Assembly (NCBI GenBank): GCA_964385615.1
Contig: CAYLPP010000003.1
Coordinates: 203,288 to 267,287, forward strand
Direction: 5' to 3'
Origin: an uncultured bacterium
GTDB lineage: Bacteria; Omnitrophota; Omnitrophia; Omnitrophales; Aquincolibacteriaceae
DNA: 64,000 bases
In this document: positions 18,545-63,682 of the stretch, one piece after another
Layout of the letters: each line of letters begins with the position of its first letter
Numbering within the stretch: position 1 is the stretch's first letter
Program-made: the position numbers and the translations under genes
The notes under the pieces: generated by a model
What the model was told of the DNA's origin: nothing
The model's database searches: none
The model's input: the letters and a program-made list of their open reading frames with translations, nothing else

Positions 18545-18730
18545 CCGATGAGACTCCTGTAGCGTAGATTTTGATAAATTCTTTTTAAGAACATATATAA
18601 AGTAATTTATACTACGGGTATCTATAATACAAACGAGTTTTGGAAAATAGACGTCTTTGATGTGAAATGCTATGCAAAGCCATAGAATGTTATAAATTGA
18701 AGATACACCATAGGTGGGAAATTGCAAATC
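18545..18730 (-). promoter_or_regulatory. AT-rich intergenic region with candidate sigma70-like promoter and RBS for the first giant gene
   Basis: A 186-bp AT-rich gap. On the minus strand TTGTAT-N15-17-TATAAA and TTGCAA-N16-TATCTT are possible -35/-10 pairs. AGGAG precedes the ATG. No experimental support. Confidence 0.25.
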
Positions 18731-24700: not shown

Positions 24701-27700
24701 AGCCTGGTCCCGTGAGGTCAACGGCCCCTCAGACGGAGCCCATATCCATTCTCGTAACTGTTTCTCCAGCCGCTGCATCACCTTAAAGTCCCCGCTCTGA
24801 AGATACGGCAGAAAATAAAGCCGAAGCGCTTCTCCCGCTTCCATTTCCGAGACCTGAATAGTCATGTCATTAGGAACCAGATCACGGCGGTTCGCAAATG
24901 AAGAAATCCAGCCATTTTCACCAAAAACCTCTTCCTGAAAAACTTCTTCCGCTGTTCTATCTTTGAAGCGGAAAGGAATTTTCACCGCACCGGGACTCTT
25001 CCGTTTAGGTCTTTCTCTGGTTTCTAAATGTGCGAGATACGCTTCACGGATTGATACCCAAACCCGCTGAGCATCGCCGGGAGTCACGTCTTTTAAATCC
25101 CGCTTCTCTCCGCGATAGAGGGACTCCAAATTCCGTTTTAACTGCTCAAGCGGAAAATTTCTCTGCTTCACCAGATACCACTCTAAAGCTTCTTCAACAA
25201 AAGCAGGTTCTTCAAGCTGACCCATTTTTCCCTGGACACCGGCCCGCAAGAATAAATCTGTCCATTCCACCCCAGCAGCTTCACGCGCCGCAAGATCTGC
25301 CTCTACTTTAACTGCCCGGATTTTGCGCTCCTCCATTTCAACCCGCCGCGCTTCCTGAGCGGCCTTCTCGCGCTGAATCAAGTCCTGATACCCTGCTGCC
25401 CCGGCACCATATCGTGGGATAAAAATTCCCGAGAACAAGTCCTGAATTGAATTTTTTTGCCCGATCCACGCCTGAATCTGAGCCAGAGGAATCTCCGGAA
25501 CCGTACCTTGCTCCGCTTTCTGATTTTCAACACTGAAAGATTCGGTCACAAGCGTGTGCAGTGAGAAATTCTGGCCATAGCCGGGAAGCTTTCTTTCAGG
25601 CCAGGGTTCACGCGTGAAAACATTTGCCTGACGTTTTCCCGTTCCGCTTTGAATTCCGCCAGCGGCGACAATCACCCCGCGCACCGGAACACCGGCCCGC
25701 CGAAGCAGTTCCAAATCGCGGACCTGCCCGGGAATCTGCGAATTGATTGTTTCCCGAATGAGCGGGTTTAAATCCGCGGCATCGTCTTCTTTAGCCTCAA
25801 CAAAATAAAGACCCTCCCCAAAATCCATTCCTTCAGGCGGCGTCACTCCCGGCCGGGGTTTAAGTGAAAGCATAATGTCGTACTCATGAAAACCAATCAG
25901 CAGATTAACGCCCAGAACCTCAACTTCATAGTAGGGTGCCAAAATTTTCTCCAGGCGGTACGCGGTCATGAGTTCACCCGCGGCCTCATCAAACCCCTTA
26001 TCACCCCCTAACTTATAAGCACTCATAAGGCGAATCACGAATTCACGCATCCCGGGAAGATTCGTATAGCGATCGGAGATCAAATATTTCAATTCTCCGA
26101 ATTTTTCCTGATTTTCCAGGATCCAAAGCTGTTCCAGCCGGCGTAACCGGGCCAGCTTGCTATGCTCAGCAAGAACATCCAGCGCCCAATCCACAGGCTC
26201 CTTTTCAGCCGGCTGCTCTGTATCGGTACGCAATTCAGAGCGCGAGATTCCGCGAAGGTTAGTTAGAAGCTCCCCGAATAATTCGGCGCTGATATTCTCG
26301 TTTGCCTCCCGAGGGGTACCCCCAAAAATCTGAACATGATTCTCTCCCACCACGCTAAAAATCTTGGTCCTGGCCGGATATAAAGCCAAACGGCGGCTGA
26401 GCACTTCACCCGCAATTTGATTGCGGACTTCAAGCCGCGCATTCCTAACACGATTCAGCCGTTCAAGAAATACGGGAATGGACGAAGGAGAGGTTCTTAG
26501 CTGTCTCAATTTTTTAACTACAAGATTGCGCTTCTGATCTTCACTCAACGGACTTCTATGAAGCGCTCTCAGTGATAAGGAAAACCATTCCGGCGCGGGC
26601 AGCTGCGTGAGCTGTAAATCGGGAACACCGCTGATTAAATGGATGAAAAGGAGGGATTCCCACACATCATCCGCGGAAAGCCCCAGAGTATCCTGAAGTC
26701 TTTGAATCACTTCGGGAGCTTCCAGTCTGGGAATAGGATCAAAAACGGGAATCCTCAAACCCCGGGCAACTTCCTTCATCGTTGTAACTTCAGCCGGAAG
26801 CGCGGCCTGGGCTCCTAAACCCGGGAGGACCAACTCCTCCGGCTCTTCGGCGCCTTCCAGCACAATGACCCAAGAACGGGGATTTCCGATCGATTTTTGC
26901 GCGATATCCAGAGCATATTCCGGTAATTGAGGATCTCCGTGCATTCCCCCGATCAAATCTACTTCATAGATTTTTCCGCTCAAAGACTCTTTCCACCGGC
27001 CTTTAAAGTGCGCGGGAGGAAGCGAGTAAATATCCAGATAATTTTGGGTGAAACTATTTTGAGCCGCCGCGTCTTTGTATTTCTTACGCACGGCCCCAAA
27101 AACTTTCCGGTTAACGAAAAGATCGTAAAAAAACCTGGGAATCACCAACAGAAGCCATTTGATCCAGGACTCCGGCTTTTCAACCTGATTTTCGGACGAA
27201 TTTTGCGTCCTGGATTCGGAGCGAGCGGACGGGACAACATTTCTTAATTGAATTTCCCTGCTCAGATCAAAACCGAGATAACCGTTTTCCTCAAGAAGTC
27301 CGAGAAAAACATACGGATCGGCTGCCGTACCAAGAATCGCCCGGATATTTGCTTCTGCCTGTTCTCGAATTGAAGCAATCGTGTTTCGAGGATGAACATT
27401 CGCGGGTGAACCTGAAGTCACTTCCGCGGCACGCCCTGTCTGGTAAATCACTTGCCCAATGGCGCCAATCATCCATTCAGGAACTTTCTGTCCGTCAAAA
27501 AGATTCCCAATCTGTTCTTTAACATGACTTTTAATCAGCTTCTCGCGCTCATAGGCAGCCTGCAGTTCGGGAGCCTGCGAAGGCTGGTACCCCTGAGACT
27601 TGAGAGCAAGACTGCTTTTCCCCTTATCCACTTCAGCAGACAGTGCATCCAGGATATTTCCGGGTTTAGCGATCAGGTCTCCAATTTTGTCAAAAGACGC

Positions 27701-30700
27701 CGCCTCCAGATTCGGTTGATCCAAGGGACCTTTTGAAACTTCGGCGGCCGCAAGCGTCAAGTCGGCCCGAACCCACCGCCCCGTCTGCAGCCGGGAAAGA
27801 GAAGAAGGCATCCCTTCATATTTCTGCGTTTCAGGAACCCAGAGATCTCCAAGGCTGATAATAAATTCTTTTTGCTCGCTCCCCGCTTCAATCCTAGCTT
27901 CAATTTCCGGATATTTTTCCGGGAACGCGTCGCGCAGAAGTTTCTGCCGTTTCTCCTGCGGAAGAGCTTTAATTTTTTCAAAATTAAGCGGGATTTTGAC
28001 TCTCTGATACATGACCCATCTCAGATACCCATGAAGAACCGGCGCGTATTCAGGCTTTCTTAAATCTTTGGAGGTCAAGCTCTCATCGCCGCGGGTTTCC
28101 GCGAGATAGGCTTTAAAGGCCGGGGGCGCGCGCCCCTGGTGCGTGGAAATCCATTCCAGCTCCTTTTGAATCGTGTCTGTCACAATTCCGAACAGAACAC
28201 TGTCCTCAGCCGGATAAAAATCGAAGCGCGCCGAAAGAAAATCATTCACTTGCTTAAAATTATCAATATCAATCATGAAGAGAAGAAGCTTTTTGTCATT
28301 GTCCATTACGCCGAAAATCTCGTCACCGATCGAAGCTTGAGAGTATCCCGAAACATGTTTATCCTCAGTGAGTCTTCTTTTATTGATCATCCGATATACG
28401 TCATAGATTAGAAAGGCCTTATTGGCCTGACGGTGATCCCGGCTGTCACGGGTGATTAGAATTTCTGTCTTCCTGAAAATTTCCCGGATTTTCGGCATGG
28501 CTTTTTTGAGCTCTTCACGTCCGCTCCGGTCTTTCCCTATTCGAATGGCTTCAAGAAGACGGGTTAAAAGATCGGTGGTCTGACGCTCAAACCGTGAAAC
28601 TGAATTGATCTTGACGGTATCATCCGGGTACCCCCAATCCAGTCCGGGCCAAGGGTGATGAACTTGCAGAGGAAAAGATCCTCTCTGACTTCCTTCCGAT
28701 AATCCGCGCCCCTCCGTGAGGACTTCCTGCCTTTTCCGGCTCTCTTCCATCATATCGCCCAGGATTTCATAAATAGTCACGGCAAGGCGGTAAGATTTTA
28801 ACCGCTTATACATATTGGCAAAAAGGAGATCATCATCAGCCGTCTGCTCACTGTCAACCGACGGCGGGATCAGTAATTCAGACAAAGATTTAGTAACCCC
28901 GGTAACAAAAACCGGATCTCCGCTGTCAATGCTTCTCCAGATGCGCCTGGCCATGACCGCGGGAAAATCTTCCATCTGAGCCTCAGCTTCAAGGGTATCG
29001 TAATCAGGATTGTTGGCATTTAAAACAGTCTCAAGCGTTCCCAGAGAAATCATCGCCGCGGGCGTTTTTAAATGCCCCTGCATCTCTTTGCGCACCGCGG
29101 CGACACGAACGGCCGTTTCTCCGCCGTCAACCGCGTTATCCTGCATCCGCTGAAGCGCGAGATCGAACTCCCGCCTGGCTTCCGCGTTAACTTCACTAAT
29201 AAACTGAGCCGCCAAGTGTTGAGGAATCCCGATAATCACCGGGCGTTTTCCTTTAACAACCCAGGCGGTTACCCCGTCCATTCTCTTTACAACCGTGTCG
29301 ATCGCGCGTTCCATCGCGTGCCACATTTCATTGCCGGCGCGCATACTGGGGTCTGCTTTATTAATCGCGCTCATCGGGGCCATGTACCCCAGAGTGATAA
29401 TAGTCTCCGCTCGAACTTCTTCGGAACGGATATTCCGGTTGCGCTGGTCGCGCATCAGCCATTGCGCTATAAATTCAGGCCCTAAATGCGTTGTGTCGAA
29501 ATCTTTTTGGAGGTACCCGTATAAACGGATCAAATCCTGCATCTGCTCCAGAACAGACGGAACCAGCCGGTCCCAGCGGCCGTCACTAGAAATTGCCGCC
29601 GCCTCTAAAACCTGCAGAATCTTTTCCACTTTTCCCAGCTGACCGGCAACGCGCAAATTTCTGCGCACAATGGGATTCGCGGTTCCGCCTCTACGCCGGT
29701 CCTCAATCCATTCGTCCCCCACCTTAACTTTGCTTTTTTCCGCCCGTAATTCACTGCGCGGAGCAACGGCACCGGCAAAGTAAGGAACCGGTATTCCAGA
29801 AGTCTTCAGCAGACTCATGACATTATTTTCATCAAGTTTTCCCAACTTATCGAGAGACCGCACACTGCGAATGAACGCGTCAATATTGGCAAGCCATTTT
29901 TCGCGCACAGAATCCAGGAAATCCCCGTTAATTTCATCTAAAAGCTGAAGATAAGAATCAGCCTTCTCCACGCGGTTCTGCGCGGAAAGATCGCGGATAA
30001 TCTGATCCCTCCACGCCTTTAAAAGTTTTCCGGGCTGATCGGTCTGCTTCAGAAGACGGTCGCGAGTTGAACGAGCAAAAGCCCGGGAGAGATTGATTTT
30101 CCCATTCTCAACCTGAAGATATTTCTTCCAGGACACATCCCCTTGCATTTGAGCCCGGTAAAGCGAAATCTCCGGGATCGACTGCATTTCCGGACGAATC
30201 AGCACGTAGGAAATCCCCGCTTCCCGTAAGATTCGGGCCAGACCCTGCGCATGAAACCCTCCAAGCACCAAAGCTCCCCGGTTCAGATTTCCGGCCTTAA
30301 TCCCATTTATAAAGTTTCCGGCAATCGCCCTCTCCCTGGCCTCCGCGTTTTTGTAAAATTCTTCAGCGGAAATAAAATAAGAGGAGGCAGGGTCTTCGGC
30401 TATTCCGTCTGATTGAATTTTTTCCCAATCTTTCCGTGAAAGCTCCAGAGAAGCCAGTTTTCGCAAGTGTTGAAAATGACGGATATCCTGAAGAAGTTTT
30501 TTCTGTTCTCCGGTTTCAGCCAGCCGATCCTGAATTTCTTCAGAATACGCTTCAAATTCCTGAAAGAACCGGGTTCCTTCTAGACCCTGAAGACGCTGAT
30601 GAGCTAAGATCCGGGCCTTGAGGCCCTCTGAATAAGCAAGCGAAGGAAGAAAAGTCTGCAGTTCTGAAGCGAAAGCGTCTTCCCGGATCTCTCCCGTCCG

Positions 30701-31588
30701 GTAGGCCTGACTCAAAGCCTGAAATTTTTTTCCGGCACCGGCGTTCTCCTGGCGGTTTTGGGGAGAATCCAAAAAAGAAAACACCCTCTGTGAAGCTTTA
30801 GAAATCTCCTCTTTGAATTCTTCTTCATTCCCGATAGAGTTTTCATTCAAAATCAGTTCCAGCGAGGAACCCTTTGGCGGTTTTTGAATACTCGCCAGAA
30901 GCTGAAGCACATTCAGCATGTCCTCCTGATTTTTCCGAAAGGCCTCAAGACTGCGTTCTAATTCCAGAAGACGCGGCGTAAAGAGCCTGTTCTTTCGATC
31001 ATTGATAATTTTTTCCATTTCCGCAATTTTGACGGAACTCTGCCGGCTGTCCGCGGCCGCCCGAAAAAGGGAGAAACCCTGCTCGTAAAGCCCCCAATCT
31101 TCAACACCTTCAAATTCCGCCAAGCCCGGTCCGGTGATTGCCGATTCGGCAGTTCCCGTCAATTCGCCTTTTTCCGCGTATCCATTGAGAACCGTCTTCA
31201 AAATTCCGGCATCCGGAAAACTTCTAAAAAGCTGCGGGTCAAAAGGCCCGAGAGCGCCCTCAACCCCGATGTAGCGGACTCCATGATCGGTCTGAAGTAA
31301 ATTCAGTAAAGCCTGAATGTTTTTCTGGGCGTCAGGAACAGCATGAGCGTCCTGAATCAGGAAAACGGCGGGAAGATCTTTTTGGCCTTCTGAGACTTCC
31401 TCAATTTTTCCAAGACCCGATGGGATTTCAAATTTGGATAAATCAGCTAAAAGAAGAACCTGGGGATCGGGTTTGGATTCAGAACCCGCCAGCGCGGATG
31501 GAAATGGAACGGGACCTGTCATGGCAAAACAGACCACGACCGCCCCCGCAACCCACCGATTTAAAGAGGTTTTCAGAGTGATTTTCAC
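18731..31588 (-). CDS. giant multidomain protein, 4,285 aa, N-terminal signal peptide, highly charged and helical, with TraB/Tiki-like, kinase-like, GGDEF-like and ATP-grasp-like motifs
   Basis: An uninterrupted 12.86-kb ORF with GTG start and N-terminus MKITLKTSLNRWVAGAVVVCFAMTGPVPFPSALAGS. Motifs by region: GGFHAQGLARIL (GxxHxxG, TraB/Tiki-like); IDIDNFKQVND; NPGNIVLENGTGKIFVVDHGFFF; and VVLKPDQGALGIGV...VVLNEIGFLPGG near the C-terminus. Confidence 0.75.
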   Translation of the reverse strand: MKITLKTSLNRWVAGAVVVCFAMTGPVPFPSALAGSESKPDPQVLLLADLSKFEIPSGLGKIEEVSEGQKDLPAVFLIQDAHAVPDAQKNIQALLNLLQTDHGVRYIGVEGALGPFDPQLFRSFPDAGILKTVLNGYAEKGELTGTAESAITGPGLAEFEGVEDWGLYEQGFSLFRAAADSRQSSVKIAEMEKIINDRKNRLFTPRLLELERSLEAFRKNQEDMLNVLQLLASIQKPPKGSSLELILNENSIGNEEEFKEEISKASQRVFSFLDSPQNRQENAGAGKKFQALSQAYRTGEIREDAFASELQTFLPSLAYSEGLKARILAHQRLQGLEGTRFFQEFEAYSEEIQDRLAETGEQKKLLQDIRHFQHLRKLASLELSRKDWEKIQSDGIAEDPASSYFISAEEFYKNAEARERAIAGNFINGIKAGNLNRGALVLGGFHAQGLARILREAGISYVLIRPEMQSIPEISLYRAQMQGDVSWKKYLQVENGKINLSRAFARSTRDRLLKQTDQPGKLLKAWRDQIIRDLSAQNRVEKADSYLQLLDEINGDFLDSVREKWLANIDAFIRSVRSLDKLGKLDENNVMSLLKTSGIPVPYFAGAVAPRSELRAEKSKVKVGDEWIEDRRRGGTANPIVRRNLRVAGQLGKVEKILQVLEAAAISSDGRWDRLVPSVLEQMQDLIRLYGYLQKDFDTTHLGPEFIAQWLMRDQRNRNIRSEEVRAETIITLGYMAPMSAINKADPSMRAGNEMWHAMERAIDTVVKRMDGVTAWVVKGKRPVIIGIPQHLAAQFISEVNAEARREFDLALQRMQDNAVDGGETAVRVAAVRKEMQGHLKTPAAMISLGTLETVLNANNPDYDTLEAEAQMEDFPAVMARRIWRSIDSGDPVFVTGVTKSLSELLIPPSVDSEQTADDDLLFANMYKRLKSYRLAVTIYEILGDMMEESRKRQEVLTEGRGLSEGSQRGSFPLQVHHPWPGLDWGYPDDTVKINSVSRFERQTTDLLTRLLEAIRIGKDRSGREELKKAMPKIREIFRKTEILITRDSRDHRQANKAFLIYDVYRMINKRRLTEDKHVSGYSQASIGDEIFGVMDNDKKLLLFMIDIDNFKQVNDFLSARFDFYPAEDSVLFGIVTDTIQKELEWISTHQGRAPPAFKAYLAETRGDESLTSKDLRKPEYAPVLHGYLRWVMYQRVKIPLNFEKIKALPQEKRQKLLRDAFPEKYPEIEARIEAGSEQKEFIISLGDLWVPETQKYEGMPSSLSRLQTGRWVRADLTLAAAEVSKGPLDQPNLEAASFDKIGDLIAKPGNILDALSAEVDKGKSSLALKSQGYQPSQAPELQAAYEREKLIKSHVKEQIGNLFDGQKVPEWMIGAIGQVIYQTGRAAEVTSGSPANVHPRNTIASIREQAEANIRAILGTAADPYVFLGLLEENGYLGFDLSREIQLRNVVPSARSESRTQNSSENQVEKPESWIKWLLLVIPRFFYDLFVNRKVFGAVRKKYKDAAAQNSFTQNYLDIYSLPPAHFKGRWKESLSGKIYEVDLIGGMHGDPQLPEYALDIAQKSIGNPRSWVIVLEGAEEPEELVLPGLGAQAALPAEVTTMKEVARGLRIPVFDPIPRLEAPEVIQRLQDTLGLSADDVWESLLFIHLISGVPDLQLTQLPAPEWFSLSLRALHRSPLSEDQKRNLVVKKLRQLRTSPSSIPVFLERLNRVRNARLEVRNQIAGEVLSRRLALYPARTKIFSVVGENHVQIFGGTPREANENISAELFGELLTNLRGISRSELRTDTEQPAEKEPVDWALDVLAEHSKLARLRRLEQLWILENQEKFGELKYLISDRYTNLPGMREFVIRLMSAYKLGGDKGFDEAAGELMTAYRLEKILAPYYEVEVLGVNLLIGFHEYDIMLSLKPRPGVTPPEGMDFGEGLYFVEAKEDDAADLNPLIRETINSQIPGQVRDLELLRRAGVPVRGVIVAAGGIQSGTGKRQANVFTREPWPERKLPGYGQNFSLHTLVTESFSVENQKAEQGTVPEIPLAQIQAWIGQKNSIQDLFSGIFIPRYGAGAAGYQDLIQREKAAQEARRVEMEERKIRAVKVEADLAAREAAGVEWTDLFLRAGVQGKMGQLEEPAFVEEALEWYLVKQRNFPLEQLKRNLESLYRGEKRDLKDVTPGDAQRVWVSIREAYLAHLETRERPKRKSPGAVKIPFRFKDRTAEEVFQEEVFGENGWISSFANRRDLVPNDMTIQVSEMEAGEALRLYFLPYLQSGDFKVMQRLEKQLREWIWAPSEGPLTSRDQAWQNLIKAAAEEAVKNQARSELRSVDRVTSVGSFKGRMDPARPVIESLTKALAQDGERTYQVADFGNGYPAYVTRDQAEWISGVLSSLHSEAVLDYTAIDQINFANYVLDSDSARWTAFIRQENDGSEPKLIYSYEWKPDWWTRLFGRDYLKEFKRVRLNPEAGSAKGISIIANPFQGEESGKKKVKFKTGKLSDGLGGAQPGSFDFISAYNVFKYYPHPEAMIPEQISPYLKDKGFLLTGTSFSLGDMLLQLYQKNGERLSSRRLFLLVGKARRRAGDAVALGYDSLGTLVDTDWYRINFADMVLREMVPNYQGYSPDEYRRAGEWMLAEPGRLDKYRQTVVERINSLGIFKAKVTGEFIEINADSVSALSPASLEDELSAMRRSEIRVEFREVPELSAEDLADGGVDADIPADVPLKSRAFRDLEKRGPLIAGLSDLLRKTLSSRKFILGSLALIYPEEKIEAGAGEPIKLILDPQSKAGSNRDFFRVRAEFQGRSYTFGIYAGILNNEQVRETELMGRLEVGPRTGVRARLPFRSNVGIMSVRAVDGESAKELLESGRVKSAFESIFKTGLMMIRKKVNFFDVVENPGNIVLENGTGKIFVVDHGFFFPDNESFSALGFAYGSALDAFSAGRDGDSVSFFGALGESAVRLTADEIKTPGAAADYLEKALEVARALNGIDPAFMDPGLIPEWTAFEKAVSEGIGALRGGESSRSEVRMATAVTEAPLEDEERDRILAELRRAFSGLQTSSGPHLWDARRLFEQGDYLEAAQELSGTLSPKWANAKENLQTLAFDKAIRKLPTVPRGLMTEAVLQETLRVLIQSDVFSFLPGSAEGEADQQQAFWRDFLEKTAALKPIAETLAVSALPSFGRARREAVNEREAQPDRVILQWTGEYRQSTEIMNAIDFLRRSLIYLFPDYQAGAGDVRSSHAPNQDDEKYRIFSLELSLKPGIASRSEARSMILPEDAFGHKKGREDQPRLPLESLLDARFNLTPESRKQKVFKIADFGTSLGDFLPAIQNQMMGLGYAVPEVEGFEAKGAAVIAGKRAGYPVQKAVVNADGITKIEAEENETRLTELEKRYDLIFFNAWDPSGRASQGFGPMFKVFKRYAQNDQSLGFVRLYNSQKISDEEKLAESRELEREIKKHPEIYFLEFSEASSPEIAAGKSPLGPLVLISLTPFSEALKTAARSEVRSFSFEAPANASDWGEIYAALQKEVNTAQFTDPNDPAEELQRLLAVVEPIIQKALGLPASYTAVEESVSSFGDYNLDSNPDRMRKRLFLMKAEKLMSAAMLKSMGHEVQFLETADGPEQELTFAELEFFIPEDLTGIFLLSQGHPELAMVVSAPFTKEVEVRGNRIWVLGGWFVKEGKIFWVHRFTKPRLVNAYNLGNISLEESLGGIIRGQFGTPLAYPPQSRDLKRFTFKSIIYLALQDPHPEIEVPRHLVQNLDKKIFTLESERRDVIVKNVQRALTSYGTDVVLKPDQGALGIGVQFFSSSDSLGEIERKVEEHLKSYPPEKAVLRYLIEEKIPLLPLKPDGRDKEVSWGVRLLLSLNPKTGRVETVNRLVRLQEGFLRRTAEYTSRDVWPVEKTFNQLGLEAGEQGRLSAEMERAAQAIYDVVSTQGRQKPGIVSVDFFITPDKKVVLNEIGFLPGGQAWFYSLPEAERLAFGNLRYDPYWFDRVAVEASKARSETRLEPILISEDLTALAMQLYPDASTAVTPRAELRRAVQQVARREIDLDLLEKTLRQAVEQTLANIRPEASVNEAVHAVFSPMIDAMLSFFRKKISEAVPGNRKVVLALDLSEIDRNGFERAESDYADILTRYFSNEVERLLIKGTLSAEVTGKIRESGISLTAQNRMEKISGTVLLNQKVLPLIRASGNIYQTSNQVLWPVGIRYDHDSGVNAEAAVMARFSQTLFGILSALLVRQPGDAEKLRAEFLQALALRKQYGDAAQAVVSFDEQGHAYINAKALEILMTRQAQTLTSRSA

Positions 31589-55756: not shown

Positions 55757-56658
55757 ATTTTTTCTACAGCGCGCAGTTTAGCGCTTCTCGATCTTGGATT
55801 CAAGTCCTGTTCTTCACTTTTTGCTAAAATCGGCTTCTTGGTCAGAATTGTGCCGGCACCCGCTTGCTTCCATTCCACAAATTGGTGCTTAACAATCCGG
55901 TCTTCAAGCGAATGAAAACTGATCACCACAAGCCTCCCGCCCTTTTTCAACCGTTTCCAGATTGCCGGTAACCCAGTTTTGAGGGCTTCCAACTCTCCGT
56001 TGACCGCGATGCGCAACGCCTGAAACACTTTCGTGGCCGGATGGCGCTTCATCCAGAACGGCCTGTTGCCCTTTTCCGCCGAAAAACCCTTCGGTAAGCT
56101 CTTTTCAAGGGCCCTCACCAGGTCAACGGTAGTTAAAATCCGCTTTTTCTGCCGTTCCTGCACAATCACCTGGGCTAATCGCCTGCCATTCCGCTCTTCT
56201 CCAAGCTCCCAAAACAGCTTGGCTAATTCCCACTCTGACAGCCCATTGACCAAATCCGCTGCCGTAACCGATGACTCAGGGCCGAGGCGCATATCAAGCG
56301 GCCCTTCCCGCTCAAAACTAAACCCTCTTGAGGGGTCTTCAAGCTGATCTGACGAAAACCCTATATCAAGTAGTACGGCATCTACGGCCGGAATGTTTAG
56401 AGAATCCAAAACCTTGTCCAGTTGCGAGTAGTTCGCATTCTGCAAGGTTACCCGGGAGTCTTCTCCAAACACCGCCTGGCAACGCTTGATGCTCTCGGGG
56501 TCCCGGTCCAGGGCAATCAACCTGCCCGACTTGCCTATCTTTTCCAGGATCGCCCGGCTGTGACCGGCACTCCCCAAAGTACCGTCCACCGCGATACAAC
56601 CTTCTTTAAGGCCCAGATAGTCCAGGGCCTCCGTCAAAAGAACAGATTTATGCAGCAA
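55753..56658 (-). CDS. rsmH: 16S rRNA (cytosine1402-N4)-methyltransferase
   Basis: 301 aa with HKSVLL...DGTLGSAGHS...DLGFSS, the MraW motifs. Confidence 0.9.
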   Translation of the reverse strand: MLHKSVLLTEALDYLGLKEGCIAVDGTLGSAGHSRAILEKIGKSGRLIALDRDPESIKRCQAVFGEDSRVTLQNANYSQLDKVLDSLNIPAVDAVLLDIGFSSDQLEDPSRGFSFEREGPLDMRLGPESSVTAADLVNGLSEWELAKLFWELGEERNGRRLAQVIVQERQKKRILTTVDLVRALEKSLPKGFSAEKGNRPFWMKRHPATKVFQALRIAVNGELEALKTGLPAIWKRLKKGGRLVVISFHSLEDRIVKHQFVEWKQAGAGTILTKKPILAKSEEQDLNPRSRSAKLRAVEKI

Positions 56659-56986
56659 AGCTCCGGATCGCCTCCTCTTCGGAGTGAAACTGTTCCATCA
56701 AACCGCCGACCCCAATCATCTGGAAGGTCTTGGCGACTTCAGGGCGCAGGTTGCAAAGCTTAATGTCCCCTTTCTGGGCACGCACCTTCATCAGGCGGTC
56801 AACCAGAATCCCGAGGCCGGCAAGCTCAACCTTGCGGGCTTCGCTGAGATCCAGAAGAAGTTTCTTCTGGTTCTTATTGAGGAGGCGGGTCAAACGCTCC
56901 TTAATCTTAATCATTTCTGAAGCATTCAAATCGCCATGAAACCGCAACACTTCAACGCCCATCTTTGCTCTGGAACGGTATGCCAT
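56648..56986 (-). CDS. STAS-domain anti-sigma-factor antagonist (SpoIIAA-like)
   Basis: 112 aa with the pattern L.G.L.......L..LL.....LLLDLS.....ELAGLG.L. The ATG at 56986 is preceded by GGGAGG. Inserted between mraZ and rsmH. Confidence 0.65.
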   Translation of the reverse strand: MAYRSRAKMGVEVLRFHGDLNASEMIKIKERLTRLLNKNQKKLLLDLSEARKVELAGLGILVDRLMKVRAQKGDIKLCNLRPEVAKTFQMIGVGGLMEQFHSEEEAIRSFAA

Positions 56987-57671: not shown

Positions 57672-57710
57672 GCAAAAAAACAGAAAAATCCCCCACTTTT
57701 TGGAGGATTA
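57672..57710 (-). terminator. putative rho-independent terminator after the zinc-ribbon gene
   Basis: On the minus strand, ATCCTCC-AAAAAGT-GGGGGAT is followed by a T-rich run (TTTTCTGTTTTTTT). Confidence 0.5.
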
Positions 57711-57733: not shown

Positions 57734-58462
57734 TTAAGTTTCGTCAGTGTAGAGGATACGGCTGCAGTTCTCGCAGACCACAAGGGCCTGATACATCCTA
57801 ACTTCATTAATCAGCTGCGGGCGCAACTGAAGCTGGCAGGCACCACAAATATCATTACTGATCTTGGCAAGTGCCATGCCCTGTTTCTTTTGAATAATTA
57901 AATCGTAAAGGCTCCGGACATCCTGTGGAACCTGCTGAATGATGGTATCCCGCTCTTTTTTCAGACCGTCCAGCTTGTCATTAATAGCTTTGACCTTCTG
58001 ATCAAGTTCAGACTCCTTGGCCTGATAATCTTTCTCTATAACTTTGAGACGTTCTTTTTCTTTCTTGATCTCAACTTCAGCCGCCTCAACCTGATCCATA
58101 ACTTTGATGATTTCTTCTTCGAGCAACGAGCCGTCAGCCTTCAGAGAGGCAATTTCCTGCTGGAGAGCGCTGTATTCCTTATTTGTCTTAACCTGGCTTA
58201 GCTGGCCTTCAAGCTTCTTAACGTTGGTTTCCTTTTGGCCAAGCTCACCGTCTTTTTCCTTTTGCTTCATCTGAAGCTTACGGAATTCACCCTCGAGCTG
58301 TTTAAGATGGTCTTTTTCAGCTTCCAGTTCAGTCTTAATTTTTTCACGAATCTCAGGGATTTCCTGCCCCGTTTCGCGCTGGCTGGTATAGAGCTCACGG
58401 TCGATAGTCTGAGCCCGCTTGAGGATTTCGATACTTTCTTTGATGGAAACTGTATTTGCCAA
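57734..58462 (-). CDS. coiled-coil protein with C-terminal C4 zinc-ribbon (COG1579/zf-RING_7-like)
   Basis: 242 aa. A long heptad-rich region, then CGACQ...CENCSR. Confidence 0.7.
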   Translation of the reverse strand: MANTVSIKESIEILKRAQTIDRELYTSQRETGQEIPEIREKIKTELEAEKDHLKQLEGEFRKLQMKQKEKDGELGQKETNVKKLEGQLSQVKTNKEYSALQQEIASLKADGSLLEEEIIKVMDQVEAAEVEIKKEKERLKVIEKDYQAKESELDQKVKAINDKLDGLKKERDTIIQQVPQDVRSLYDLIIQKKQGMALAKISNDICGACQLQLRPQLINEVRMYQALVVCENCSRILYTDET

Positions 58463-58529
58463 GAGATGAGTCCTTTAGTTGAGGAGGGATTATAGAGGAG
58501 TTTCAGCCAGGCATCAAGGTTAAAACTTG

Positions 58530-59057
58530 TCAGTTGGTCAGCTTACGGATTCCCAGACTAATCTCAATTAACTCACTGATTTCCGACCGGCTCAGGCGCG
58601 GCAGAGTCGATTGAACCTGAAAACCTTCAGGCGCAGGCGGGAGCACCTTGGGAGCGGCCTGACAGAGGTCTTTTAAGGCCAGTGCGGATCCGCTCTCGGA
58701 ACTCAGAAAAGAATATTGAAAGCACCGCGGATTCCCCGGCAATGCTTTTAAAAGTCCGTGCCCGCTCGTAAGCTCCTGAAAAAAAGCGAATATCCGCAAG
58801 GGCAGGTTAAAAGTCGACTGCAAGCGCTGAATCTCTTTAGCCAATTCCGAAAGGTCTTGATGGCCTGCGGGAGTGTTAAATACACGGCTCCAAACGATGA
58901 ATTCCCCTGTTTTTATAAAAAACTGATCTTCCCGGTCATAGCTTAGAGCGAAGACCCGGTCGTAATCATCAATGTGCTCATACTCCAGGACAGCCTTCTT
59001 TAAAGACTCCACAACCCCTTTGGATGGCGCCGTAGCCCGGATAAAGTAGGTCTTCAC
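58530..59057 (-). CDS. hypothetical protein
   Basis: 175 aa in a tight array with the flanking genes. No recognised domain. Confidence 0.4.
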   Translation of the reverse strand: MKTYFIRATAPSKGVVESLKKAVLEYEHIDDYDRVFALSYDREDQFFIKTGEFIVWSRVFNTPAGHQDLSELAKEIQRLQSTFNLPLRIFAFFQELTSGHGLLKALPGNPRCFQYSFLSSESGSALALKDLCQAAPKVLPPAPEGFQVQSTLPRLSRSEISELIEISLGIRKLTN

Positions 59058-59812
59058 GAGGCTCTCAAGGAGTGACTCAATGCCTGCTTTTCACTGAGCA
59101 TAAGAAAATTATCATGGGAAATTAAAAGTTCCAGATCAAAAGCAGGTATGCCGTGAAAACCTCCTCTGGAAACAGGATGACACCCAAACCATCCCAGATC
59201 GCAGCCTAAGTGCCGGGAGACCATTTCAGAAAGCTTTTCATAAAGATACGCTCCGGTTTTCTCCTCCAAGCCGTCATAAGCCAGCAGGCACTCAAGGCGG
59301 GCATTGCGTTGAAGAGCCCATTTGATCCACTTATAGACCTCAGAAAGATTTTCCATCTCAGGAGTAACCCAAAAAACCGTTTTATCAAGAAGCCCGACGG
59401 CCTTCTCGAACACACCCGCGTTGTGCCAGGAAAAATCGAGAAACATAAGGGAAGACTCCATTTCTCCTCTTCCCGAAGAAGAACATGAACAATTTTTTTC
59501 AAACTCACTCAGGTCCATATGCCGGTGCTTGACCCAACTGCCTTTTAAGGCACTGGCGCCCTCAGGCTCTCCCTGGCAACCAATAGACACAATGCTTGAG
59601 GGGTATCCCGCGGCAGAGGCTTGTTCCGCCGCTGCGCGGCAAAGATCAAAGGATGAAATCAAGCCTGGATGAGAAAGACTAATCAGCTGAATGGATGCGT
59701 CGGGAAGAATGTTCCGGGCAATCGGCTTTTCCCCGGATTCAAAACCCGCTTTTTCTGAAAACAAGGTGGAAATATCTTTAAGACCACGCTTCAGTTTCCG
59801 GACTTCATCCAT
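59054..59812 (-). CDS. hypothetical protein (Cys-rich middle segment)
   Basis: 252 aa; its start overlaps the ParA-like gene end by 8 bp and its stop overlaps the next gene by 4 bp. No recognised domain. Confidence 0.4.
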   Translation of the reverse strand: MDEVRKLKRGLKDISTLFSEKAGFESGEKPIARNILPDASIQLISLSHPGLISSFDLCRAAAEQASAAGYPSSIVSIGCQGEPEGASALKGSWVKHRHMDLSEFEKNCSCSSSGRGEMESSLMFLDFSWHNAGVFEKAVGLLDKTVFWVTPEMENLSEVYKWIKWALQRNARLECLLAYDGLEEKTGAYLYEKLSEMVSRHLGCDLGWFGCHPVSRGGFHGIPAFDLELLISHDNFLMLSEKQALSHSLRAS

Positions 59813-60917
59813 AATTCGCCCCCAGGTTCAGGTCGAGAAAAGAATCAAAGGTTCCGAAAGCGTTAAGTTGATGGAAGGGCTGTCCGGGGTCCACCTGCCA
59901 TTCCCCATCAATAATATATTTATAGCGGTAAGTTCCCGCCGTAATGGGAATAATTTTCTGCCAAAGCCCTTCTTCCCTGGAAATCATGGGTTCAGGAATC
60001 CAGTTATTAAAATCACCGGCAAGTTCGACCGTGCGCGCATTCTTGCTGACCGTCTGAAAAAGAATACCGCCGTGGACTTTGCGAGGGCCGAAATGGCTCT
60101 GCACGGCATTGTCCCACCCAAGCTTTTTGGCCGGAAGCGCTCGGTCCAGCTGACGCTCTAAATATTCCACAGCCAGATTAAAATAGTCCCTGAACGCGCC
60201 TGACCCACGGTCATACTGAACAATACTTTTACCCGCGCCGGCCGCTTCTTTCAGAAGAACGCTTTCATGAATAATGCTCTTGAACAGCTTTTCTTTGAAG
60301 AATCCTCTAACCTCTTCATACACTTCTTTGCCGAAGCAGGTGCGGGAATCAAAAATCGTCAGCAGCGCGTTAATTTCAACAGGATGGGTCCGTTTGAGGT
60401 TCAGGCCCGCAAGGGTTTCAGTCATTTTAGCCAAGCCGTGAAGGGAAAAAAATGAAGGCTCTATCGGAATGATAATTTCATCCGAAGCTTCCAGAGCGTT
60501 AAAAGTCAGGCTTCCCAAATTAGGCGGGCAATCCAAAATAACGTAATCAAATCCAGGCATCTGACTGTCAATCCATCGCAGCTGCTGGCGTAACTTTTTC
60601 TCTATCCCCGGCACCCCTGCCATTTCGCTTTCAATTTCAGCAAGCCTCGTATAGGCAGGAATTAAAGAAAGATTTTCATCAATACGGTGGATGAGCGGAG
60701 AAGCGCTGAGAACCGCGCTGTAGGGAGTGAGTAAATCGTAAGTGCCCTGCGGAGCTTCCCGTTCACGGACACCCAAACCGCAGGTCGAGTGCCCCTGCGG
60801 ATCCATATCCACAATCAGAACTTTTTTATGAAGCAGTGCCAGGCAGGCCGCAAAATTAATACTGGTAGTCGTCTTGCCGCAGCCGCCTTTTAAATTCGCA
60901 ATTGCCAGAACCCTCAA
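59805..60917 (-). CDS. ParA/MinD-family ATPase fused to a C-terminal CBM48/AMPK-beta glycogen-binding-like domain
   Basis: A deviant Walker A (KGGCGKTTTS) with Walker A'/B (DMDPQG, VILDCPP). The C-terminus (AGDFNNW...YRYKYIIDGEWQVDPGQP) matches the AMPK-beta GBD pattern FNNW...YKFFVDGQWTHDP. Confidence 0.75.
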   Translation of the reverse strand: MRVLAIANLKGGCGKTTTSINFAACLALLHKKVLIVDMDPQGHSTCGLGVREREAPQGTYDLLTPYSAVLSASPLIHRIDENLSLIPAYTRLAEIESEMAGVPGIEKKLRQQLRWIDSQMPGFDYVILDCPPNLGSLTFNALEASDEIIIPIEPSFFSLHGLAKMTETLAGLNLKRTHPVEINALLTIFDSRTCFGKEVYEEVRGFFKEKLFKSIIHESVLLKEAAGAGKSIVQYDRGSGAFRDYFNLAVEYLERQLDRALPAKKLGWDNAVQSHFGPRKVHGGILFQTVSKNARTVELAGDFNNWIPEPMISREEGLWQKIIPITAGTYRYKYIIDGEWQVDPGQPFHQLNAFGTFDSFLDLNLGANYG

Positions 60918-61023
60918 TCCCGCCTCCCTTTTCGAATGGTGAAGATTTCGGAGCCGGGTATATTAACGGCAGGTGCCGGTACTTTCTAAAGGGTTAAGGA
61001 AAGTCCCCCTCTGAAAGGGGTTT

Positions 61024-61509
61024 TCAATTATCGCGGCGGTCGTTGGAAAGCTGATTGAGGATTTTCATGAAAAAATCCTGCTCAATATCAAGATCATCAC
61101 CGGTAGGCTTAATTAACTCCCAGGGATCCTGGATTCTGGTACCTATTCTCTGCTGGAAGACCCCGGTAATTTCAATCATTGTGTCTCCAGCACGATCGCG
61201 AAGCCGTACCTTCATACGGTAGCGCCGGTCATACATCTGTTTGGGAATATTCTTCAAAAGACGGTTGGAACGCCGAACCCGGTCCTGAACCCAATCCGTT
61301 TCAATGGTTTTCTTATTTTCATTTATTTTCCGGATTCCGAAAGGTTTCAAGGCCGTCTGAACAGCTTTCCAAACTTCATCCTGAGAAACAGCGATTTCAT
61401 CCGAATAGCGCGCGAAAGAGTTTTTAGGGGCTACTGTTAATAACAAGACAAGCCCTGCGAGCGCGAAAAAGCTGAAGACACCCCGCTGAATCAAGCCGCG
61501 AAACTTCAT
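61024..61509 (-). CDS. hypothetical exported/membrane-anchored protein
   Basis: 161 aa with an N-terminal hydrophobic segment (VFSFFALAGLVLLLTVA) and a basic middle region. Confidence 0.45.
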   Translation of the reverse strand: MKFRGLIQRGVFSFFALAGLVLLLTVAPKNSFARYSDEIAVSQDEVWKAVQTALKPFGIRKINENKKTIETDWVQDRVRRSNRLLKNIPKQMYDRRYRMKVRLRDRAGDTMIEITGVFQQRIGTRIQDPWELIKPTGDDLDIEQDFFMKILNQLSNDRRDN

Positions 61510-62447
61510 AAAGTAAACAGCCTTTCAATCGGGACAACCCCGATGACTTCCCCATGCATATCCGTCACCACAGCAAAAGACTGACGCTTTTGCTGTAAAG
61601 TCAGAAACGCTTTTTCAATTGATGTATTTTTGGATAAAAAAATGGGCGACCTCAGATATTTCTTTAAAGTTTGTTTTTCATCTTTTTCAAACAGAAGGTC
61701 AAACACATAAATCATACCTACGATAATCGACGGGATTTCTTCGTAAACGAGAATCATCCTGGCCTGTGTTTTCAGCGCGATTTCTTTAGCTCTGGCTATA
61801 GATTCAGAAATTTCGATCTTCGCGACCCGATCTGAAGAAGTCATGACTGACTCCACGTGAATTCTCTCAAAATCCAGGATTGTGTCTACCAGCTTTTTTT
61901 CGTGAGGATTCAAAATCCCGGAACTTGTACTTTCTTCAATCAGGAGGCGGAATTCCTCTTCGGAAACAAAAATACTGCGGTGCAGGGGTCCGCCAAAAGG
62001 CCCCAGAATTAAATCCACGCCTTTGAGCAGCCAAACCGCCGGTCTCTGGAGAATCTTTAAAAAAAACTCCAGAACGGAAGCCCAGGCAAGCAGGAACTGC
62101 TGAGAGCGAAGTCTGCCGTAATCTTTAGGAACTGTTTCACCCAAAATAATAAAAAACGGAACCGTCAGCAAGGTCACCAGCCACTCGCTTTCGATCTTAA
62201 AATTCTGCTGAAGCCAGAAAGCCGCCGCCGATGTCGCGGTAATCATGGTGATATTATTCATAATCAGGACAATCGTCAGAAATTGATGCGGATGTTCCTG
62301 AAGGCGCATGATCTTCTTTGCCCGAAGATCCCCGCCATCGGCAAGCTCTCTAAGTTTGAGTTTATTGGCCGACACAAAAGCCATTTCAGAACCCGATAAA
62401 AATCCGGAAAGAATCAAACAAAGAAAAAAGACGAAAAGGAATGTCAT
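61506..62447 (-). CDS. CNNM/DUF21-CBS membrane protein (HlyC/CorC-family transporter, short form)
   Basis: 313 aa with the DUF21 TM region (FLSGSEMAFVS) and a CBS pair. It lacks the CorC_HlyC C-terminal domain. Confidence 0.75.
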   Translation of the reverse strand: MTFLFVFFLCLILSGFLSGSEMAFVSANKLKLRELADGGDLRAKKIMRLQEHPHQFLTIVLIMNNITMITATSAAAFWLQQNFKIESEWLVTLLTVPFFIILGETVPKDYGRLRSQQFLLAWASVLEFFLKILQRPAVWLLKGVDLILGPFGGPLHRSIFVSEEEFRLLIEESTSSGILNPHEKKLVDTILDFERIHVESVMTSSDRVAKIEISESIARAKEIALKTQARMILVYEEIPSIIVGMIYVFDLLFEKDEKQTLKKYLRSPIFLSKNTSIEKAFLTLQQKRQSFAVVTDMHGEVIGVVPIERLFTL

Positions 62448-63682
62448 TTCTTTACCGCCTTGACCAATACGGTCCGGATAAGGCGGTGCCGGATCACATC
62501 CTGTATTTTCATCTGGCAGTCAGGAAGACTGAGTATCTTCCCCTTCTCCGGGACTTCTCCGATTTTCTCCAAAATAAAGCCGGCGAGTGTGGATGTTTCC
62601 TGAGCTTCCAGATTCAGCGAAAAGAATTCATTAAACTCCGAAAGCGGGATTTTCGCTTCCACAAGATATTCCTGGTTTCCAGCCGGGCGGATGGGATTTT
62701 CGGGTTTCGCGTATTCATCGTAAAACTCTCCGAAAATTTCCTCAAAAATATCCTCCAAGGTTACAATCCCTGCCGTTCCGCCGTATTCATCCACGCAAAC
62801 CGCGAAATTCTTATTTTTAGAACGGAATTCTTCCAGAAGATCATCAATCCGTTTGAATTCAGGAATGAAAAGAGGCTGTTTAAGCAGTTGGGCCGCAGGC
62901 GTCTGCCGGTCCAGCACATACTCCTGAACAGGAACCACACCTAAGAGATTGTCTACCGATCCCTGGTAAACCGGGAAGTGAGAGAAATGATATTTCTGAA
63001 TCATCTCCAGATGTTTTTCTCGGGGTTCTTCAATATCAAGCGCCGCGATCGCGGTACGAGGCGTCATAATGTCCTTAACCGCGCGCTCCCCCAGGTCGAG
63101 AAGCTTCTGGATCATCTGCCTCTCCTGGCGGTCCAAAACCCCCTCCTCTTCTCCAATCTTAACAAGGGTCTTCAGCTCTTCTTCAGAAATCTGGTCTGTA
63201 TGCTCTTTTTTCTCCGGAATTAGAACGTGGATGATTTTTTCAGTAACCCATCGGACCGTCCAGCGGAAAGGAAATAAAAGCACTGAAATAACTTGAAGCG
63301 GTAAAGCGGCCAGAAGTGAAATTTTCTCGTTTTTCCGGACGGCTACCGTCTTGGGAAGAATTTCAGCAAAAAAAATCAGAACAATCGTAAATAAAACCAT
63401 AACAAAGCCGAGAGCACCCGGGTGTAAGTATCGAAGAACCAGAAGTGTCATATTCGCCGCGGCAAGGGTATTAACAAACAGATTGCCGATTAAAATAGTG
63501 ATCAGCGCCTGGCGAGGATGATCCAAATGCCTCTGAACCCAGGGTGAAAGCCCAGGATGCGCCTGCTGGAGACGGCGGCGCTCCATTTTGGAAAGAGAAA
63601 AAATCGCGGTTTCAGCCGAAGAAAAAAACGCGCTTAAGATAAAAAGCAGCGCTAATCCGGCCATATGAAGAAAAAGATGCAT
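62444..63682 (-). CDS. CNNM/DUF21-CBS-CorC_HlyC family transporter
   Basis: 412 aa with DUF21 (FFSSAETAIFS), two CBS motifs and a C-terminal CorC_HlyC-like domain. Confidence 0.8.
   Translation of the reverse strand: MHLFLHMAGLALLFILSAFFSSAETAIFSLSKMERRRLQQAHPGLSPWVQRHLDHPRQALITILIGNLFVNTLAAANMTLLVLRYLHPGALGFVMVLFTIVLIFFAEILPKTVAVRKNEKISLLAALPLQVISVLLFPFRWTVRWVTEKIIHVLIPEKKEHTDQISEEELKTLVKIGEEEGVLDRQERQMIQKLLDLGERAVKDIMTPRTAIAALDIEEPREKHLEMIQKYHFSHFPVYQGSVDNLLGVVPVQEYVLDRQTPAAQLLKQPLFIPEFKRIDDLLEEFRSKNKNFAVCVDEYGGTAGIVTLEDIFEEIFGEFYDEYAKPENPIRPAGNQEYLVEAKIPLSEFNEFFSLNLEAQETSTLAGFILEKIGEVPEKGKILSLPDCQMKIQDVIRHRLIRTVLVKAVKK

Follow-up and report, generated by a model that had tools for sequence, protein, structure and literature searches.

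What might a ParA-type ATPase that ends in a predicted glycogen-binding module put in place, and with which partners? The question is raised by four consecutive open reading frames (ORFs) on the minus strand of a 64,000-nucleotide stretch of DNA from an uncultured Omnitrophota bacterium (GenBank assembly GCA_964385615.1, contig CAYLPP010000003.1, positions 203,288 to 267,287), hereafter the window. They are labelled G1 to G4 in the order of transcription, and G1 encodes the fusion of a ParA/MinD ATPase to a CBM48 module. Our proposal, put forward tentatively and with a little under even confidence, is that G1, G2 and G3 form a ParA/MinD-type positioning or tethering module whose cargo would be cytoplasmic alpha-glucan, either glycogen granules or an enzyme assembly on them; every functional step of it is predicted from sequences and structure models. 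The original prediction, made from the letters of the DNA, had described a ParA-CBM48 fusion in one operon with two unknown proteins and a zinc-ribbon coiled-coil protein. When the ORFs were re-read from the sequence, all four were recovered where it had placed them, co-directional and on the minus strand. The features of G1 to G3 are as follows, with the basis of each call in brackets.

59805..60917, minus strand: G1, ParA-CBM48 fusion, 370 amino acids (aa) (Pfam, alignments)
60153..60917, minus strand: G1 ATPase domain, residues 1-255 (AAA_31, ParA/Soj structures)
60072..60152, minus strand: G1 linker, residues 256-282 (family alignments)
59832..60071, minus strand: G1 CBM48 module of the AMPK-beta type, residues 283-362 (PF16561, PF02922, 1z0n alignment)
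59054..59812, minus strand: G2, predicted ParA/MinD fold lacking the P-loop, 252 aa (structure model, profile chain)
59759..59800, minus strand: G2 N-terminal basic peptide RKLKRGLKDISTLF, residues 5-18 (G2 alignment)
59063..59692, minus strand: G2 predicted ParA/MinD-like body, residues 41-250, with IQLISLSHPGLISSF at the Walker A position (Foldseek)
58530..59057, minus strand: G3, 175 aa, weak likeness to a PD-(D/E)xK or NucS_C-like fold (structure model, Foldseek)
58554..58595, minus strand: G3 C-terminal conserved motif LSRSEISELIEISL, residues 155-168 (G3 alignments)

The ATPase and CBM48 halves of G1

The N-terminal half of G1 is a ParA/MinD ATPase, as had been called: AAA_31 matches residues 1-173 (E 7.4e-47, 160 bits against a cutoff of 27), and CbiA also matches (E 2.6e-16, 60 bits, cutoff 25.4). 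Its closest solved relatives are the ParA of 8ray (E 4e-47) and T. thermophilus Soj (1wcv, E 1e-43), to which it is about 40% identical across 255 residues. The deviant Walker A motif reads KGGCGKTT, with the signature lysine at K10 and the Walker A residues K15 and T16. A genome scan with one genome per species gave at least 440 related stretches; the locus and alignment counts given below refer to the best 80 of them, with genes taken from crude longest-ORF calls. In the 80-member alignment, K10, K15, T16 and the Walker A' residue D39 are invariant in all 79 aligned members, one having a gap; the Walker B residue D129 is invariant in 80 of 80, and GxGK[ST] is present in 77 of the 80 family proteins.

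The C-terminus of G1 passes the thresholds of both CBM48 profiles, AMPK1_CBM (PF16561) at residues 292-359 with E 1.5e-12 and 48 bits against a cutoff of 26.8, and CBM_48 (PF02922) with E 2.6e-7 and 31.3 bits against 22.4. The assignment, which had been made to depend on such matches, therefore stands, and the two motifs quoted in its favour, FNNW and YRYKYIIDGEWQVDP, are found in G1. The best PDB matches of this module are the CBMs of AMPK beta1 and beta2 (1z0n, E 2e-9). In AMPK beta1, glycogen binding is lost with the substitutions W100G and K126Q and is weakened by W133L and G147R (PMC6274970). By the 1z0n alignment W100, K126, W133 and G147 correspond to W306, K333, W340 and G355 of G1. 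W306 is kept in 80 of 80 members, W340 and G355 in 79 of 79 each, and position 333 is lysine in 71 members and arginine in 9. The module is a predicted glycogen binder with its contact residues intact. Since the catalytic residues of the one half and the glycogen-contacting residues of the other are both conserved, both halves of G1 look selected for their canonical activities. The linker between them is conserved in the close Omnitrophota clade (LGW...GPR) and is longer and variable in other lineages. The CBM48 part of G1 also matches three proteins, P0148, P0281 and P0251 (1812, 1436 and 698 aa), in 17, 7 and 6 separate stretches, respectively; these appear to be tandem arrays of the same CBM48 subtype.

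Full-length homologues of G1 number in the hundreds in the protein database, at about 366 aa and 55-81% identity, and those that are named come from Candidatus Omnitrophota. The best 80 of the genome matches cover G1 residues 1 to about 363 and come from Omnitrophota, Nitrospirota, Thermodesulfobacteriota (deltaproteobacteria), Planctomycetota (including Pirellulales, Phycisphaerae and Ca. Kuenenia), Poribacteria and Krumholzibacteriia. Among the 150 best representatives of clusters at 50% identity, almost all match the ATPase region, and the majority either match along their full length or have a second matching stretch; their lengths run from 350 to 700 aa, and their linkers vary in length. 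Taken together, the hundreds of homologues, the 80 loci and the cluster representatives show that the fusion is not a product of chance or of assembly. Homologues are annotated solely as 'AAA family ATPase' or as 'chromosome partitioning protein', the latter a Joint Genome Institute (JGI) label. The ParA-CBM48 fusion is thus a large uncharacterised family that spans several phyla, anammox bacteria included.

G2 and G3 as candidate partners

Direct reading of the sequence bears out the short overlaps that had been reported. Eight nucleotides, ATGGATGA, are common to the stop of G1 and the start of G2, and four, GTGA, to the stop of G2 and the start of G3; through these overlaps G1, G2 and G3 are translationally coupled.

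G2 has no match in Pfam or NCBIfam. Its N-terminus, M..RKLKRGLKDISxLF, is its most conserved part, invariant across 12 homologues whose identity is otherwise 31-58%. Searched with a regular expression, the 4822 ORFs of the 80 loci gave 58 peptide matches; 53 of these are the gene directly downstream of G1, the remaining 5 are DUF4912 proteins, and none lies elsewhere. With relaxed matching, a peptide-bearing gene directly follows G1 in 56-57 of the 79 evaluable loci. In ParA/MinD systems the partner protein works through a short N-terminal peptide of positive charge, which is joined to interaction domains of many kinds (PMC7993993; 10.1101/2022.06.09.495121). The invariant basic peptide of G2, set ahead of a probably disordered stretch, therefore makes it a candidate ATPase-activating partner, and G2 is likely an adaptor or activator of G1. 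The peptide also resembles the N-terminus of chromosomal ParB, whose motif is (K/R)GLG(R/K)GL or LG(R/K)GL; since a PDB search with the G2 peptide returned spurious zinc-finger repeats only, this resemblance is drawn from what is published on ParB.

The body of G2 is predicted to be a diverged ParA/MinD-fold paralogue without a P-loop, that is, a pseudo-ATPase. Its AlphaFold model has a mean predicted local confidence (pLDDT) of 75, with 85-93 in the core; residues 41-250 form an alpha/beta domain, and values fall below 50 at residues 1-14 and 19-37, the latter probably being disordered. Foldseek matches of the body are FlhG (4rz3, E 2.8e-7), FleN, ParF, Soj, MipZ and MinD, at E 2.8e-7 to 1e-4. 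A direct HHalign comparison of the G2 family of the window with the G1 family showed no homology (0.1% probability), and the relation to ParA is drawn instead from the structure model and from a chain of profiles through far lineages. The window G2 family aligns with the far-lineage G2 family at 99.4% probability (E 4.6e-21, 217 columns), which in turn aligns with the G1 ATPase domain at 89.6% (E 1.9e-6), the alignment starting directly past the P-loop; two far-lineage G2 proteins exceed the Pfam cutoffs of ParA, AAA_31 and CbiA from about profile position 15 on. SHPGLISSF occupies the Walker A position of the window G2, and a GxGK[ST] Walker A motif occurs in none of the 58 peptide-bearing proteins.

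The peptide is mostly carried on this ParA-like body, and it also occurs on unrelated proteins of 182 aa and 553 aa and on one with HTH_17 and RodZ_C domains. Such variant bodies are found at L048:11091-11639, L054:11091-11639, L055:1947-2495, L057:1510-3171 and L080:7940-9295 in the compared loci, the RodZ_C domain belonging to the L080 partner. Loci in which no peptide gene follows the fusion are L052, L061, L063, L066, L067, L069, L072 and most Planctomycetota (L053, L059, L070-L079). Many of these partner-less fusions have longer linkers, and several of those from Omnitrophota have mnmG/gidA and a LOG-family gene in their vicinity. If they have a partner, its gene would lie elsewhere.

G3, which accompanies G2 across phyla, likewise has no match in Pfam or NCBIfam. 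It is modelled at a pLDDT of 82, with residues 20-130 of the core above 90, and its Foldseek matches are weak ones to the nickase N.BspD6I and to NucS/EndoMS (E 0.015-0.05, probability 0.9-0.97). One far-lineage G3 has a match to NucS_C that falls short of the cutoff (E 0.0023). The near and far G3 families align with 43% probability (E 2.5e-4) and have position and size in common; a conserved C-terminal helix reads LSRSEI.EL in the near family and LTPEEIAEF(M) in the far one. Neither a D...(D/E)xK catalytic motif nor a conserved DNA-binding motif is shared by the near and far alignments, and we read G3 as a putative non-catalytic adaptor with a nuclease fold. A defence system, which the pairing of an ATPase with a nuclease-like fold had brought to mind, was rejected: PADLOC gave no match for G2 or G3 and just a 19.9-bit P-loop match of G1 to the candidate model PDC-M28B, the matches of far G3 were confined to two candidate models of nuclease domains, PDC-S18 and PDC-S11, and gene order is conserved around the locus, which lies among housekeeping genes.

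Glycogen genes, flanking genes and rival readings

Glycogen genes stand beside the module in other lineages. In a distant Omnitrophota clade the G1-G2-G3 triad is followed by PgeF, a DUF4912 protein (with Glucodextran_B) and a GH57 1,4-alpha-glucan branching enzyme (Glyco_hydro_57 and BE_C). In 9 of the 80 loci, from two phyla, the fusion has GH57 and DUF4912 genes no more than 10 kb away; one of these loci is from Thermodesulfobacteriota and also holds a stand-alone CBM48 protein of 98 aa. In locus L058 GlgB comes directly after the fusion, and in L059 the fusion is followed by the genes gap and pgk. Five of the nine DUF4912 proteins carry a G2-type peptide, K[KR]LGKGL[EK]DIS.LFLS, in a lysine-rich N-terminal tail. 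The association of the module with glycogen genes is real and limited to about three independent lineages; outside the DUF4912/PgeF clade, glycogen enzymes were not generally enriched among the 98 neighbours (the first half) scanned with Pfam in far loci. The suggestion that a ParA system may act on glycogen agrees with these neighbourhoods with GH57 branching enzyme, DUF4912 and GlgB.

Several details of these loci are recorded for reference. The peptide-bearing DUF4912 (with Glucodextran_B) genes are L042:7758-9230, L043:13725-15608, L044:4637-6487, L049:4209-5891 and L074:13707-15245, with the GH57 branching enzyme adjoining; the other four DUF4912 neighbours have the basic tail without the peptide. 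L046 has a stand-alone CBM48 ORF of about 100 aa between the triad and GH57 (6373-6669, minus strand, AMPK1_CBM E 3e-14), and L056 a similar one of 119 aa, no GH57 gene being found in that locus. At L058:10001-12479 the ParA-CBM48 gene precedes a bacterial-type GlgB (GlgB_N, CBM_48, Alpha-amylase) on a 3.2-Mb chromosome labelled 'Methanomassiliicoccales archaeon'; its presence under an archaeal label could reflect horizontal transfer or a mislabelled bin.

It is proposed that ATP-bound dimers of G1 would bind a matrix, most likely the nucleoid (DNA), with the two CBM48 modules of the dimer holding glycogen. The G2 peptide would then trigger ATP hydrolysis and release by G1, the G2 body and G3 serving as the interaction part of the adaptor; in some lineages the DUF4912 protein beside the GH57 branching enzyme may do the job of the G2 peptide. 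Granules would thereby be dynamically tethered and distributed, and not left to aggregate or drift. The model departs from the canonical diffusion-ratchet in that cargo recognition sits on the ATPase itself. A wider claim is possible and held more tentatively still: that many anaerobic and uncultured bacterial lineages actively organise their glycogen granules as a cargo, through an unrecognised ParA module in which the ATPase grips the polysaccharide directly by CBM48, the activating peptide comes from a degenerate ParA paralogue and DUF4912 proteins share that peptide; glycogen instead of DNA could also be the positioning matrix.

The remaining features lie at the edges of the module and around G4.

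61006..61020, minus strand: terminator-like hairpin past the BamC-like gene, upstream of G1 (consensus scan)
60923..60928, minus strand: Shine-Dalgarno-like GGGAGG, 5 nucleotides upstream of the TTG start of G1 (read from the sequence)
58489..58517, minus strand: sigma-70-like promoter match (TTGATG, 17-nucleotide spacer, TATAAT) in the G3-G4 gap (consensus match only)
57734..58462, minus strand: G4, COG1579/CT398-like coiled-coil hairpin with C4 zinc ribbon, 242 aa (Pfam)
57687..57709, minus strand: terminator-like hairpin, 9-bp stem and T run, 25 nucleotides past the G4 stop (consensus scan)

The hairpin at 61006..61020 is probably the upstream limit of the G1 transcription unit, and that at 57687..57709 would part the G1-G4 stretch from mraZ and the dcw cell-division cluster; the consensus scans also put a promoter-like site before mraZ. 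Such promoter- and terminator-like sites are sensibly placed, yet their total counts are not above chance. An Rfam scan of the window found two tRNAs only. The minus-strand genes directly upstream of G1, at 61024-63682, encode a small lipoprotein like BamC/NlpB and two proteins with CNNM/CBS domains, and their order is kept in most close Omnitrophota loci. Downstream, a gene for a STAS-domain, anti-sigma-factor-antagonist protein (56648-56986, minus strand, E 1.3e-15) is inserted between mraZ and rsmH, and the insertion is kept in about 25 Omnitrophota loci. Farther off, between genes of purine biosynthesis, two giant ORFs adjoin on the minus strand: one of 4677 aa at 4694-18727 and one of 4285 aa at 18731-31588, the latter with a start that resembles a signal peptide.

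G4 itself is of the COG1579 type, as had been stated, and scores above cutoff for CT398_CC (57 bits) as well as for Zn_ribbon_9 (37 bits). Its hairpin and zinc ribbon are like those of CT398 (CdsZ) and HP0958, but it is not a CdsZ equivalog (102 bits in NCBIfam, below the cutoff of 275), and its surroundings show no evident link to type III secretion or flagella; in the loci that have G4, mraZ comes directly after it. In the source clade the order CNNM-CNNM-BamC-like-G1-G2-G3-G4-mraZ-STAS-rsmH-ftsL-ftsI is kept in about 25-37 loci, whereas distant Omnitrophota, Nitrospirota and Thermodesulfobacteriota retain the G1-G2-G3 triad without G4 or dcw genes. G4 is 67 bp from G3. Being found beside the triad in one clade only, with its own promoter-like site and directly upstream of mraZ, it probably stands outside the core module as a clade-specific neighbour tied to mraZ. 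The four-gene operon of the original prediction accordingly shrinks to the conserved unit G1-G2-G3, with G4 adjacent in one Omnitrophota clade. The idea that the downstream genes encode cargo or adaptors holds in part: G2 is a likely adaptor or activator and G3 travels with it, while G4 was rejected in that role, being missing from the far-lineage triads.

Several observations weigh against glycogen positioning. No recognisable glycogen gene exists in the 64-kb window, and one lies within 10 kb of the fusion in only 10 of the 80 loci, 8 of them from one clade. About 22 loci, mostly of Planctomycetota, have no adjacent peptide-bearing partner. The canonical scheme has the partner alone on the cargo, and a ParA that itself carries a domain for cargo binding does not conform to it. 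Nucleoid binding by G1 is plausible and is made uncertain by one residue: R189 of B. subtilis Soj, the arginine needed for non-specific DNA binding, has R192 as its probable counterpart in G1, and that position is arginine in only 54 of the 80 members. Finally, the module abuts the dcw cluster in the source clade, and a division-related role would fit that too.

Such a role is the substance of a rival that we regard as unlikely, in which G1 is a sensor of glycogen state: an AMPK-like CBM48 input would modulate the ParA switch, which with G2 and G3 would position or regulate, for example, the divisome or the chromosome, coupling division to carbon reserves. The CBM48 of G1 is of the AMPK-beta subtype, and AMPK is inhibited by glycogen through this type of module (PMC6274970). 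The module stands directly upstream of G4-mraZ-rsmH-ftsL-ftsI in the source clade, an order kept in about 25 loci, the L080 partner carries RodZ_C, and most loci have no glycogen gene nearby. However, adjacency to dcw genes is confined to one Omnitrophota lineage, the triad occurring elsewhere without them, and terminator- and promoter-like sites lie between the module and mraZ; the DUF4912 proteins beside GH57, which share the activating-type peptide, point to glycogen-associated partners.

That G1 is a partition ATPase for DNA, with G2 and G3 replacing ParB (G3 binding DNA, G2 delivering the peptide) and CBM48 as an accessory anchor, seems to us improbable. It would suit the chromosomal ParA/Soj that are the closest solved relatives of G1, the JGI label on homologues, the likeness of the G2 peptide to the N-terminal LG(R/K)GL motif of ParB, the weak matches of G3 to DNA nucleases (NucS/EndoMS, N.BspD6I) and NucS_C, and the mnmG/gidA genes near some far loci. 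Yet Pfam and NCBIfam find no ParBc or helix-turn-helix (HTH) domain in G2 or G3, the predicted fold of G2 being that of ParA/MinD; G1 scores 100 bits against the NCBIfam ParA_partition equivalog, below the cutoff of 180; the best fold match of G3 is weak (E 0.015), and its near and far families share no catalytic or DNA-binding motif; and the Soj R189 counterpart is not conserved. No repeated parS-like site turned up, though none was searched for. Segregation would also leave the strictly conserved sugar-binding residues unexplained. The least probable of the readings weighed, and a distinctly doubtful one, is that G1 moves nothing and is an assembly factor or scaffold, an ATP-gated recruiter of glycogen enzymes such as the GH57 branching enzyme and DUF4912 onto the granule, comparable to SIMIBI-class assembly ATPases. 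Clustering of the module with GH57, DUF4912 and GlgB and the presence of the G2-type peptide on DUF4912 proteins agree with it, and CBM48 would keep G1 on glycogen whatever its nucleotide state; but the ATPase is specifically Soj/ParA-like and not like Get3, Mrp or HypB, and the clustering with enzymes is confined to few lineages.

Comparison with known systems

ParA/MinD ATPases are a general bacterial solution to placement, serving chromosomes, plasmids, carboxysomes, chemoreceptor arrays and the divisome. In the literature searched, which leaves much subscription literature outside, nothing relevant was found on ParA/MinD proteins with glycogen, CBM48 or a glycogen-binding domain, nor any report of a storage polysaccharide as their cargo; DUF4912 had passing mentions in two papers only, and glycogen is absent from a recent survey of the cargos of ParA/MinD proteins (10.1101/2022.06.09.495121). 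If the positioning of glycogen by G1-G2-G3 is true, it would add polysaccharide as a new class of ParA/MinD cargo, with cargo recognition built into the ATPase and a pseudo-ATPase paralogue as a new type of activating partner, and it would give a first functional lead for DUF4912 and for two conserved hypothetical families.

G1 shares the deviant Walker A with its signature lysine and the A' and B motifs with the ParA/Soj-ParB/Spo0J systems (type Ib), and its downstream partner G2 starts, as ParB does, with a basic (K/R)LG(K/R)GL-type peptide. No characterised ParA, however, is known to have a C-terminal CBM48, and G2 differs from ParB in lacking the ParBc and HTH domains and in being a predicted ParA-fold protein without a P-loop. 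The CBM48 subtype of G1 is that of AMPK beta, plant PTST1-3 and SEX4/LSF1, where it likewise sits on regulatory, non-hydrolytic proteins as a module for targeting to, or sensing of, glycogen or starch; those contexts are eukaryotic kinases, scaffolds and phosphatases, whereas G1 is a bacterial ParA ATPase. PhaM- and PhaF-type proteins link polyhydroxybutyrate (PHB) granules to the nucleoid for distribution to daughter cells. This is a functional analogy only, PhaM and PhaF having no sequence relation to the module and not being ATPases.

For G2 the nearest structural likeness is to FlhG and FleN, its best matches. FlhG is a MinD-fold protein whose N-terminal activator peptide stimulates a partner SIMIBI NTPase, FlhF. 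FlhG, unlike G2, hydrolyses ATP, has a helix that targets it to the membrane and acts on a GTPase; G2 lacks Walker A, and its presumed target is a ParA. As a whole, the module is comparable to McdA-McdB of carboxysomes, PomXYZ, ParC-ParP and PpfA-TlpT, in which the gene of a ParA-like ATPase also lies beside that of a partner other than ParB. Partners in such systems have, like G2, a charged N-terminal peptide as the predicted activator, the remainder being a cargo or interaction domain (PMC7993993; 10.1101/2022.06.09.495121). The G1-G2-G3 module differs from them in its predicted polysaccharide cargo, in a cargo-binding domain carried by the ATPase and in a partner that would be a pseudo-ATPase of the same fold.

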